From NCBI RefSeq assembly GCF_045037415.1, contig NZ_CP173438.1: a stretch of DNA of 64,000 bases. One strand, written 5' to 3'. Within the stretch, counting starts at the first letter, position 1. Each line of letters opens with the position of its first letter. A program made the position numbers and the translations under genes. The stretch comes from Escherichia coli (GTDB taxonomy: Bacteria; Pseudomonadota; Gammaproteobacteria; Enterobacterales; Enterobacteriaceae). Below the pieces are notes generated by a model. That model did no database searches. It had not been told where the DNA came from and saw only the letters and a program-made list of their open reading frames with translations. This document shows, piece after piece, positions 29,560 through 30,633 of the stretch.

Positions 29560-30633
29560 CTACTGATACTGTATGCCAGAATGTTTCCTGCCTGCTGCTG
29601 AAAACGGCAATATCCAGGGCCAGACATATTCACCATTCATATTTCTGCATTTCTGTACAATTTTCTCAGAAAGCGTCTCATCAATTCTTTCACGCAACTT
29701 CTCCTGCTGTCTTAAAATACTTTCGCATATTTCGAAATCATCTTCCTGCATCAGCATTTCGGCGCATTTAATGATTTCTGCCCGTTCATGCAGCACAGAG
29801 GAATGGTTATAGAGCCAGTTTACAAACAGCAATGCTTCCGGATATTGTCCCCATAATGGTGAGTATGTTGCATAATAATCTTCGGCAGTATCCGGCCCGG
29901 CAGAATAGTTATGCCATACAGCAAGAGGAAATGGATGCAGATTTCCGCACAGTATTTCCGCGATGTAAGTATTTGCCGCAAATCCGCGACGAAATGCAGT
30001 TGCAGCTTTTACCTGTTCCCCATTAAGAAAATGCAGAAGACCAAGTTCATACCAGTAAGGTGAAAATTCATCAGCATGTTTTTTCAGTACACTGAAGGCT
30101 CGCTCATGATCACCTGTTCGTAACAGTTCTGAACCCAACAACCAACGGGCACCCTGATTATCTTCAGGATTGTATGCCAGTATTTTATCAGTAAGCATAA
30201 CCGCATCCTGATGACGCTGTAAGTGCACATTTGCGAGAATTGCTGCATAAAGCGCGCGCAGATAAGGCCGGTTTTCGGGATGCATCCAGATGATTTCACC
30301 ACTGAAACTTTCCGGGATGAGACGATTACCGGCCGCCAGTCCTTTAAGCGCGGCGTTCAGAGCCTTACGCGGGGCATTCTGCTCCAGAAATGCATATGCC
30401 AGATGAGCGTGTATATCAATAAAGTCAGGCTCCCGTTGAGCAAGGTGTCTGAGTTTGTTGATGTAACTCGTCTCGCTGATTTCATCAGTGTCGTATGCAT
30501 CAAGCACTTCTTCAAACTCCCCCAGTAATGGGCCAAACCAGGTATCCGGAAATACGAAACGCCCCTGGTTATCGTTCACTTCAAAGCGTAATCTGTCGTT
30601 CATTTTCTGAGCCTGTAAAACGGATGGGGACAT
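29560..30633 (-). CDS. Hypothetical protein with TPR-like helical repeats (357 aa)
   Basis: Long ORF; repeat-like helical segments; no catalytic motif; lies between cargo genes and the integrase. Confidence 0.45.
   Translation of the reverse strand: MSPSVLQAQKMNDRLRFEVNDNQGRFVFPDTWFGPLLGEFEEVLDAYDTDEISETSYINKLRHLAQREPDFIDIHAHLAYAFLEQNAPRKALNAALKGLAAGNRLIPESFSGEIIWMHPENRPYLRALYAAILANVHLQRHQDAVMLTDKILAYNPEDNQGARWLLGSELLRTGDHERAFSVLKKHADEFSPYWYELGLLHFLNGEQVKAATAFRRGFAANTYIAEILCGNLHPFPLAVWHNYSAGPDTAEDYYATYSPLWGQYPEALLFVNWLYNHSSVLHERAEIIKCAEMLMQEDDFEICESILRQQEKLRERIDETLSEKIVQKCRNMNGEYVWPWILPFSAAGRKHSGIQYQ

Follow-up and report, generated by a model that had tools for sequence, protein, structure and literature searches.

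The shiA gene of the Shigella flexneri island SHI-2 and its relatives sisB and sisA, found in UPEC CFT073 and in the LAA, SE and tia islands, have been studied from 1999-2009 onward as inflammation suppressors. According to secondary descriptions of Ingersoll (2003, 2006) and Lloyd (2009), deletion of shiA in Shigella, or of both sisA and sisB in UPEC, leads to more host inflammation, and complementation, described for these orthologues only, restores the suppression. In the same descriptions, ShiA affects host inflammation without a loss of invasion. The literature also reports that sisA is expressed in human UTI and that shiA is induced anaerobically. On SHI-2, shiA lies within the first 2.9 kb counted from selC (PMC6174562), and the type of protein found in E. 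coli B, ECB_03517 of REL606, is reported to be 97% identical to ShiA of strain M90T (PMC3256949). A 1,044-bp gene that PGAP annotates as "tetratricopeptide repeat protein", adjoining a phosphoethanolamine transferase gene and Hes, was recently equated with SisA (PMC13340028, 2026).

Here we describe a gene next to selC in a 64,000-nucleotide stretch of Escherichia coli DNA (contig NZ_CP173438.1, hereafter the window), which is almost certainly, to judge from its sequence, an intact allele of shiA/sisB and so a member of the ShiA/SisA/SisB "ShiA-like inflammation suppressor" family. The gene itself is already published. New are a structural match to yeast Rqc1 together with Pfam Tcf25 matches of distant family members, and full-length relatives that lack a constant partner gene and are carried by plasmids, ICEs, Tn3-type transposons and islands in non-pathogenic Proteobacteria.

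Results

We used the published typing primers and pairwise comparisons to identify the gene. The sisA forward primer has a perfect match at 30362-30381 on the minus strand, the sisB reverse primer pairs with 30090-30115 on the plus strand except for 2 mismatches, and in silico PCR with this pair gives a 292-bp amplicon, which is the published size. The window protein shares 94% identity with the "ShiA-like" protein of E. coli B and 91% with cluster P0002 of S. flexneri, and these two are 96% identical to each other; identity to ShiA (reference entry AF141323) is thus judged by way of P0002 and the E. coli B protein. Identity to a pheV allele with the sisA-specific QARHILQE motif is 88%, and it is 86-88% for sisA-type alleles overall. 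The alleles are mosaic, with a C-terminal third that is near-identical between them and N-terminal two thirds that diverge. The window gene shares with ShiA, SisB and SisA its length (347 aa, 1,044 bp), its slot, in which it directly follows a P4-type integrase at selC or pheV, and its neighbours, a phosphoethanolamine transferase and a Tia/Hes-type outer-membrane protein. It differs from them as an allelic variant only, and the phenotype data come from the orthologues. A first-pass annotation of this DNA had described an unassigned and solitary unknown gene. The primers, the 91-94% identity and PMC13340028 give it a name instead, and the match is a clear one to a characterised family outside defence; the suggestion in the same annotation that it might be virulence cargo agrees with the shiA/sisB literature. 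A literature search for its RefSeq accession, WP_000999867.1, found no mention.

The open reading frame at 29560..30633 (minus strand) encodes 357 aa counted from the first ATG. This length, which the first-pass annotation gave, stands for the reading frame; for the protein 347 aa is favoured, because the second ATG, at 30603, is the start methionine in every homologue aligned and the RefSeq CDS in the identical genome (1,044 bp, 347 aa, WP_000999867.1) begins at this position. We take 29560..30603 (minus strand, stop included) as the shiA/sisB-type CDS and consider ATG 30603 the likely true start. The 10-codon upstream extension at 30604..30633 (minus strand), which opens with the first in-frame ATG at 30633, is absent from all homologues, has no PGAP call, and is probably 5' UTR rather than coding. 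A sigma-70 promoter-like site (TTGATA-17-TATGCT) stands upstream of shiA at 30643..30671 on the minus strand. It is a consensus match only, at 9/12 positions, and it carries little weight because 10 such sites were observed in the region against 5.1 expected. Since its putative -10 element ends at 30643, a ribosome-binding site for ATG 30633 would have no room. About 70 nt past the shiA stop we found a terminator-like G+C-rich hairpin with a T-rich tail (29468..29488, minus strand), whose hairpin sequence is kept in other alleles. A second terminator-like hairpin lies immediately 3' of the integrase stop (30973..30988, minus strand) and would divide int and shiA into two transcription units; by these predicted signals shiA is its own transcription unit. 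It had also been considered that the reading frame could be a piece of a larger one. This is excluded, as homologues from many taxa are 330-350 aa long and align with it end to end.

The gene does occupy the integrase-proximal slot of a selC island, as first annotated, with tRNA-Sec, a P4-like integrase and then the window gene in this order. The tRNA-Sec gene (selC; 32525..32619, minus strand; ARAGORN, and Rfam RF01852 with 83.8 bits) is the island attachment site, and the published att core TTCGACTCCTGTGATC is located inside it at 32533-32548. We looked for a second copy of this core, which would delimit the module, and found none within the 64-kb window; a scan of the flanks with Rfam gave no RNA family except tRNA-Sec. 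The tyrosine integrase (31036..32226, minus strand) matches NCBIfam PRK09692 with 315 bits, under the curated cut-off of 434, and is assigned to the P4 type by its N-terminal arm-type region. On the other side of shiA, and convergent with it, is a gene of the phosphoethanolamine-transferase family (27693..29195, plus strand), a recurrent neighbour whose pairing with shiA is also seen in other sampled loci and in PMC13340028. It is preceded by tia (26763..27518, plus strand), which encodes an outer-membrane invasin/adhesin of the Tia/Hek/Hra/Hes type and is a recurrent member of the int-shiA-ept-OMP module. A C-terminal fragment of a second P4-type integrase (26367..26594, minus strand) marks the left edge of this int-shiA-ept-tia module of about 5.9 kb, and this fragment also borders tia on the left in L092 and L094. 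The slot is recurrent: in 8 of 9 sampled E. coli loci the gene lies 250-420 bp from the tRNA-adjacent P4-type integrase. In E. coli and Shigella, many islands at selC and pheV begin with a small int-shiA-ept-tia module of this kind. The island in the window also holds a type I restriction-modification system and an antitoxin gene.

Among complete E. coli genomes, 1,978 of 5,426 (about 36%) carry the gene, the laboratory E. coli B lineage included, and it usually comes first behind a P4-type integrase at selC or pheV. The link to the integrase is not obligatory, since many genomes, such as those of O157:H7 and Nissle, have this selC integrase but no shiA. When eight alleles were compared in pairs, dN/dS was 0.12-0.24 in the sufficiently diverged pairs, with 0.32 in one pair of low divergence. 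The range of 0.12-0.24 holds in all thirds of the gene, and there is no fast-evolving segment. These values demonstrate that purifying selection acts on shiA/sisB and rule out diversifying selection. Together with the prevalence in E. coli, they show that this is a genuine gene and not a chance reading frame.

The protein is a helical repeat protein with no recognisable catalytic motif, and here the first-pass annotation was correct. Pfam ANAPC3 (31.6 bits, cut-off 27.2) and TPR_19 (25.5 bits, cut-off 25) match at residues 139-217, and the AlphaFold2 model (mean pLDDT 92.8) has an N-terminal beta-hairpin followed by 16 helices; the protein is thus assigned to the TPR proteins both by HMM matches over threshold and by a predicted solenoid of antiparallel helix pairs. 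Scans with Pfam and NCBIfam found no catalytic domain, and the only NCBIfam matches were sub-threshold TPR cross-matches (SctY, PrsT, MamA). The type III secretion class II chaperone SctY was rejected as an identity, with 26.1 bits against a cut-off of 70 and a model of 106 positions against a protein of 347 aa. The protein is 40 kDa, acidic (pI 5.3) and soluble, with a peak 19-residue hydropathy of 0.88, and no signal peptide, membrane segment or recognisable secretion signal was found in its sequence. In the family alignment the polar motifs NRPYLRA, NPxDNQGxR, AATAxRRGFxxNxYIAE and PLxxWH are invariant. Many of the invariant polar residues map to inter-helix loops of the model, and the conserved residues include N111, R112, D148, R205 and H231. 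When the PDB sequences were searched with the family profile, only generic TPR proteins were found, and a profile of the non-TPR C-terminal half gave nothing significant (best Gp316/JADA, E 0.16, taken as noise). The viral structures of BFVD returned giant-virus TPR proteins only. With generic TPR adaptors (MamA, PilF, YbgF/CpoB, LapB, SctY/LcrH) the family shares the protein-binding TPR solenoid. However, the HMM and structural matches to MamA and PilF are weak and that to SctY is 26 bits, all far under the family cut-offs, and the ShiA family is set apart by invariant motifs of its own, by its N-terminal beta-hairpin and by a C-terminal helical region outside the TPR type, and it lacks membrane, secretion-system or magnetosome neighbours.

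The best structural match of the predicted fold is yeast Rqc1, which is of similar size, at about 336 residues. Pfam Tcf25 (PF04910) was matched by 22 of 80 diverse or distant family members, with a best E of 2.5e-10. One family member, P0207, exceeds the cut-off (51.7 bits against 24.2) by its N-terminal module; hhalign aligns this module with the ShiA profile at a probability of 97.7% (E 1.7e-12), and a phmmer search of the PDB with it found nothing. Closer relatives match PF04910 weakly (4 of 44, best E 0.0044), and the window protein has no match to it at E<=10 in Pfam. PF04910 belongs to the TPR clan, so such cross-matches may be generic. Yeast Rqc1 attaches to the large ribosomal subunit and also binds ubiquitin and a RING E3 ligase (PMC12215860). 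It also differs from the window protein in having a long polybasic N-terminal region, and its partners are Ltn1, ubiquitin and Cdc48, which E. coli does not have. A literature search for TCF25 together with Shigella found nothing.

Relatives of the protein extend far outside the E. coli islands. At E<=1e-30 we obtained 223 clusters (50% identity), with full-length members in Massilia, Janthinobacterium, Rubrivivax, Rhizobium, Agrobacterium, Methylobacterium, Pseudomonas putida and Myxococcota. Plasmids carry family members (71 records, of which 44 are conjugative), and so do ICEs, next to the relaxase and FlhDC-type activators; the gene also occurs directly upstream of a TrwC relaxase. In Tn3-family transposons a relative sits between tnpA and tnpR and overlaps the resolvase gene. 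Three unrelated recombinases adjoin the gene, a P4-type integrase in E. coli, a DUF3701-type integrase in Rubrivivax and AAP65, and a serine resolvase, yet a recombinase lies within 5 kb at only 8 of 36 loci outside E. coli islands. Other neighbours include type I restriction-modification genes (a complete system beside the Massilia homologue), HipA, HicAB, Fic and a MORC-like ATPase. In four genera of Oxalobacteraceae the gene has a fixed chromosomal site downstream of rng. All-vs-all clustering of the neighbours at 30 loci revealed no conserved partner gene but only lineage-specific synteny, namely HipA at five loci of Alphaproteobacteria with one element in common, an AAA_22 ATPase at three loci, and rng in Oxalobacteraceae. 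A tblastn search of 50,697 phage records found no homologue.

Discussion

As an explanation of the locus as a whole we lean, modestly, towards an intact shiA/sisB allele on an int-shiA-ept-tia module whose product acts as an intracellular adaptor. The part of this that concerns function, an intracellular protein-binding adaptor with an indirect effect on host inflammation, is in itself plausible, a shade short of probable. The ShiA/SisB protein would work in the bacterial cytoplasm and grip a conserved partner via its four invariant motifs, and the shift in host inflammation would then be an indirect outcome of altered bacterial physiology, with no direct host target. The likeness of the fold to the Tcf25 domain of Rqc1 suggests, as possible partners, a large complex, for example the ribosome, or a small beta-grasp protein. 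The invariant polar residues in the inter-helix loops and the lack of a conserved partner gene at the 30 loci speak for an adaptor. The 223 clusters, with members in soil and plant taxa, and the presence in E. coli B speak for an intracellular role and against one restricted to animal hosts. Indeed, as family members are common on mobile elements of non-pathogenic Proteobacteria and occur in E. coli B/BL21, which has served as an avirulent control, inflammation suppression is arguably not the primary biochemical role of the family. Against the adaptor, no partner emerges from the present data, delivery to host cells would also be possible, the Tcf25 link fails for the window protein itself, and the siting of the family by genes for recombinases, relaxases, toxin-antitoxin and restriction-modification systems fits a function for the mobile element at least equally.

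Such a function would help the carrying element, for example by neutralising a defence or restriction factor of the host on entry (anti-defence or establishment) or by modulating the adjoining site-specific recombinase, with virulence as a side effect. The plasmids and ICEs, the position next to relaxase genes, the overlap with the resolvase gene in Tn3-family transposons, the three unrelated types of adjoining recombinase and the neighbouring restriction-modification, HipA, HicAB, Fic and MORC-like ATPase genes all favour it. Anti-defence factors, moreover, usually take the form of small non-enzymatic binding proteins. We nevertheless consider it unlikely, because the low dN/dS without a fast segment is unlike the arms-race pattern that anti-defence genes often show, the selC integrase evidently does not need shiA in islands such as those of O157:H7 and Nissle, most loci outside E. 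coli islands have no recombinase nearby, the site downstream of rng is fixed, and the phage records contain no homologue. If the protein were instead directed at the host, it would be secreted, or released by lysed or intracellular bacteria, and would act as a TCF25/Rqc1-domain mimic or generic TPR decoy that binds, for example, ubiquitin or a RING E3 and perturbs inflammatory signalling dependent on K48 chains. The inflammation phenotype without invasion loss, in the secondary descriptions, and the Tcf25 matches in 22 of 80 diverse members agree with this idea. We hold it to be quite improbable, however, since the protein has no signal peptide or recognisable secretion signal, a review counts ShiA as a predicted cytoplasmic protein, Tcf25 is matched neither by the window protein nor by its close relatives, and family members are common in soil, plant and aquatic bacteria and present in E. 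coli B. To our knowledge, UPEC CFT073 also lacks a type III secretion system.

The first-pass annotation had raised a defence role, and a single-gene anti-phage system in an integrase-proximal hotspot would suit the tRNA-island slot, the restriction-modification system and antitoxin gene elsewhere in the island, and the restriction-modification system beside the Massilia homologue. This lead gained no support. PADLOC-DB v2 gave only a noise match (DrmC, E 0.036, 11.7 bits), a PHROGs scan of the window protein gave no match, and none of the 50,697 phage records had a homologue. In addition, the protein is without an effector or enzymatic domain, the gene, present in about 36% of E. coli genomes, stays at one conserved position and does not take turns there with other systems, purifying selection acts on it, and its orthologues have a documented phenotype outside defence. 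A defence system is therefore very improbable.

Returning to the adaptor that we favour, a further proposal about its ancestry is that ShiA/SisA/SisB form a bacterial branch, borne on mobile elements, of the eukaryotic TCF25/Rqc1 superfamily, with an Rqc1-like docking on the large ribosomal subunit or on a small beta-grasp/ubiquitin-like protein. We regard this as speculative and rather doubtful. If it were true, ShiA of pathogens could act either on bacterial translation and quality control or, on reaching the host cytosol, on K48-ubiquitin-dependent inflammatory signalling; this would be the first molecular mechanism for ShiA and, as far as we found, the first reported prokaryotic Tcf25-domain protein. 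The Rqc1/Tcf25-like fold thus offers concrete candidate binding partners for a protein that has been studied for more than 20 years.

Two labels in the literature give ShiA another function, as a "putative quinone reductase" (PMC7545054) and as the product of a "transporter gene shiA" with similarity to quinone reductase (PMC6174562). Neither the sequence nor the predicted fold supports them: Pfam and NCBIfam found no oxidoreductase domain of a nucleotide- or flavin-binding kind, be it Rossmann, flavodoxin or ADH, there is no membrane segment, and the model is an all-helical TPR solenoid, so that a quinone reductase, NADPH oxidoreductase or transporter is hardly credible at all. The transporter label presumably arose from confusion with the unrelated shikimate transporter ShiA of E. 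coli K-12. The RefSeq label "tetratricopeptide repeat protein", for its part, conceals a named and studied gene that already serves as a virulence marker in STEC, EAEC and UPEC typing.

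Identification of the integrase-proximal gene as shiA/sisB

The first-pass annotation had listed the gene beside the P4-type integrase as unassigned and TPR-like, a candidate for defence or virulence cargo. Primer sites, protein identity and island position showed that it is the already known shiA/sisB, a member of a characterised non-defence family. We used the sisA and sisB primers published by Lloyd et al. (2009), in the form given by PMC3256949 and PMC2978726. The sisA forward primer matched exactly inside the ORF (30362-30381, minus strand) and the sisB reverse primer matched with two mismatches (30090-30115, plus strand), giving an in silico product of 292 bp, the same as the published size. 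The peptide QARHILQE, encoded by the sisA-specific reverse primer, was found in the pheV allele, which is 88% identical to the window protein; the latter has the sisB/ShiA-type GDHERAFSV in its place.

The E. coli B protein was 94% identical to the window protein, and its REL606 counterpart has been reported as ShiA-like, with 347 aa and 97% identity to the ShiA protein from S. flexneri M90T (PMC3256949). The protein cluster named from S. flexneri was 91% identical to the window protein and 96% identical to the E. coli B protein, and a 57%-identical homologue is annotated "shiA" in one plasmid record. In SHI-2, shiA lies within the first 2.9 kb from selC (PMC6174562). The SE island and the iuc/iut islands (SHI-2/SHI-3) are listed as carrying ShiA, and the tia island inserted at selC as carrying Tia together with LeoA (PMC7545054). 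A 2026 paper on the LAA island identifies a 1,044-bp gene, called "tetratricopeptide repeat protein" by PGAP, as SisA, the homologue in E. coli of ShiA from Shigella; it adjoins genes for the outer-membrane protein Hes and for a phosphoethanolamine transferase (PMC13340028).

An ORF of 357 aa from its first ATG was present at 29560..30633 (minus strand), exactly as first described, and is not a fragment of a larger one. The RefSeq CDS in a genome identical over the stretch (WP_000999867.1, 1,044 bp, "tetratricopeptide repeat protein") starts at the second ATG, at 30603, a start common to all homologues in our alignment. Therefore, we took the real product to be 347 aa and corrected the earlier length. 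Consensus matches placed a promoter-like site 10-40 nt 5' of the ORF and terminator-like hairpins 3' of the integrase stop and 3' of the shiA stop. Because it lies between two such hairpins with its own promoter-like site upstream, shiA appears to be monocistronic and looks like its own transcription unit.

Distribution and selection in E. coli

We found shiA in 1,978 of 5,426 complete E. coli genomes, with up to five copies per genome. Of nine sampled loci, the window included, eight had a P4-type integrase 250-420 bp from shiA and adjacent to the tRNA gene (selC or pheV); in the ninth, IS1 had replaced the integrase side. The order integrase, shiA, phosphoethanolamine-transferase-family gene (ept) and Tia/Hes-type gene recurs among E. 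coli loci, often bounded on the far side by an integrase fragment, suggesting a small module stacked onto older islands. The integrase can do without shiA, since many genomes, such as O157:H7 and Nissle, have the same selC integrase but no shiA.

Pairwise dN/dS among eight alleles was 0.12-0.24 for sufficiently divergent pairs and 0.32 for one low-divergence pair, and no third of the gene came near 1; shiA is under purifying selection. Along the same alleles dS changed sharply, indicating that they are recombination mosaics. When window 29560-30603 was compared with loci L010-L012 and L092-L095, dS against the B-strain or pheV alleles was 0.05-0.10 in the C-terminal third and 0.14-0.57 in the first two thirds. 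At selC of laboratory E. coli B strains the shiA-like gene is intact, as in Nico21(DE3), a BL21 derivative (L010, 7001-8044), and C2566. BL21 was the avirulent negative control of the 2026 hes-sisA study (PMC13340028).

Relatives beyond enteric islands

An exhaustive profile search returned 223 clusters (50% identity) at E<=1e-30. Full-length members outside E. coli were of the same length, with 38-57% identity, and came from Morganella, Serratia, Klebsiella, Edwardsiella, Xenorhabdus and Pseudomonas putida, and from Betaproteobacteria (Massilia, Janthinobacterium, Pseudoduganella, Rubrivivax, Vitreoscilla, Undibacterium), Alphaproteobacteria (Rhizobium, Agrobacterium vitis, Methylobacterium, Mesorhizobium, Roseiarcus, marine Rhodobacterales) and one Myxococcota MAG. 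Their neighbourhoods were diverse, chiefly mobile or variable DNA. In one ICE the gene has an AAA_22 ATPase on one flank and FlhDC-type activators plus the relaxase on the opposite flank; elsewhere its neighbours are a type I restriction-modification system, HicAB and type VI secretion effector cassettes, or DUF3701-type integrase, HipA, TrwC relaxase, MORC-like ATPase, Fic and RecQ. Homologues also occur on conjugative plasmids. In Tn3-family transposons of Klebsiella (pCAV1344-40) and Morganella, copies of 57% identity (L099, 7001-8577; L100, 3325-4901) sit between tnpA and tnpR, overlapping the start of the resolvase gene. This slot is a described site of toxin-antitoxin pairs.

IncF plasmids of sheep isolates, about 20 in number, and E. 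coli strain C5 share a pairing of a shiA-like gene with a GGDEF diguanylate cyclase (L097, 7001-9764; L095, 2241-5006), and two Oxalobacteraceae (L017, L021) have a GGDEF or GGDEF-EAL gene directly downstream; this pairing may be chance. One ICE and two betaproteobacterial islands have, 66-82 bp downstream of the shiA-like gene, a gene for a 382-aa AAA_22 ATPase (L003, 11179-12327; L016, 7497-8645; L018). In the protein P0104, of 513 aa, 177 residues resembling the end of a P-loop ATPase precede the ShiA-like domain. The ATPase could be a lineage-specific partner.

Predicted structure and resemblance to Tcf25/Rqc1

The protein (40.2 kDa, pI 5.3) had only TPR-type Pfam matches, ANAPC3 and TPR_19, mid-protein and just over threshold, and TPR cross-matches below threshold in NCBIfam. 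No hydrophobic segment was found (maximum 19-residue hydropathy 0.88). AlphaFold2, given 44 homologues, produced a confident model (pLDDT 92.8, pTM 0.87) with an N-terminal beta-hairpin followed by 16 helices. The family alignment showed strongly kept polar motifs, chiefly in inter-helix loops: IPEgFxGxIxWxxxxNRPYLRA, NPxDNQGxR, AATAxRRGFxxNxYIAE, PxPLxxWH and AxxYxxxxGxxW.

Pfam Tcf25 (PF04910) was matched at E<=1 by 22 of 80 diverse members (best 2.5e-10). P0207, one of the relatives, carries two ShiA-like modules, the N-terminal of which scored 51.7 bits on Tcf25 (cut-off 24.2) and aligned with the ShiA profile at an hhalign probability of 97.7% (E 1.7e-12, 246 columns). The Tcf25 domain of Rqc1, about 336 residues, is the same size as the ShiA family; it forms a bridge between the 60S subunit, the RING domain of Ltn1 and the acceptor ubiquitin (PMC12215860). 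The window protein itself had no Tcf25 match in Pfam, of 44 closer relatives only 4 matched, and weakly, a profile of the family's C-terminal half found nothing significant in the PDB, and other specific helical-repeat families also cross-matched among the 80 members. We treat the resemblance as a lead and not as family membership; a literature search for a ShiA-TCF25 link found no paper.

Possible functions of ShiA/SisB

The Rqc1/Tcf25 and mobile-element observations are new, the gene itself being already known, and its remaining interest rests only on them and on its mechanism. ShiA/SisB is a soluble, non-enzymatic helical-repeat protein. We tentatively favour, at somewhat short of even chances, an intracellular adaptor: it would act within the bacterium, its invariant polar surface would grip a conserved partner, and the host would thereby be affected indirectly. 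For orthologues, secondary descriptions, among them PMC7545054 and PMC13340028, report that inflammation in animal models rises when shiA, or sisA and sisB, are lost; published work also has sisA expressed in human UTI and shiA induced under anaerobic conditions. A host-directed effector or TCF25 mimic is a rather improbable reading of the protein; its N-terminus is not signal-peptide-like.

The family is borne on the mobile DNA of many non-pathogens, and service to the mobile element, in anti-defence, establishment or as a recombinase accessory, is unlikely. Of 36 loci outside the E. coli islands, 8 had a recombinase no more than 5 kb away, and clustering of all neighbours in 30 loci revealed no partner gene shared by the whole family. 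Anti-phage defence we consider very improbable: a PADLOC scan gave noise only, PHROGs gave no match, and a search of 50,697 phage records turned up no homologue. SHI-2 ShiA has also been called a "transporter" or "putative quinone reductase" (PMC6174562, PMC7545054). An oxidoreductase or transporter can practically be dismissed, being contradicted by a sequence with TPR matches alone and by an all-helical model; the name "transporter" probably arose from a mix-up with the same-named K-12 shikimate transporter gene.

Layout of the island

To the right of shiA lie the integrase (31036-32226, minus strand), tRNA-Sec (32525-32619, minus strand), yicJ and then yicI. To the left, and convergent with it, are ept (27693-29195, plus strand) and tia (26763-27518, plus strand), with the last 75 aa of a second P4-type integrase, a C-terminal fragment (26367-26594), as the left boundary; other strains show this arrangement at pheV and at selC (L092, L094). 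The block (26367-32226) looks like a module of about 5.9 kb stacked in tandem on an older island; a search of the window for another copy of the selC att core found none.

Alleles that differ by 6-12% in their coding regions are 97% identical over the 420 bp downstream of shiA (29150-29560), a stretch that matched no Rfam family. Other genomes have a 76-aa "hypothetical protein" ORF annotated there; in the window it is 56 aa (~29246-29416, minus strand), frameshifted by a 5-bp duplication (GGTCTGGTCTGG).

Farther left are IS1, a RelB/DinJ-like antitoxin gene (24883-25389) with no evident toxin gene adjoining, and a complete type I restriction-modification system (hsdR ~18314-21550, hsdS 21550-22836, hsdM 22836-24815). 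In the L001 annotation, the source of these coordinates, this left part (~15400-24815) also holds two hypothetical genes, a RhuM-family gene and a mobI(A/C) gene, the last suggesting that IncA/C plasmids could mobilise part of the island. The yicI-yicH interval (~36900-43860, L001 annotation) holds a sugar-utilisation cluster of about 7 kb, with a BglG-type antiterminator, PTS IIA/IIB/IIC, two aldolases, a ROK protein and a lyxose/mannose isomerase, whereas in E. coli B (L010) yicH directly follows yicI.
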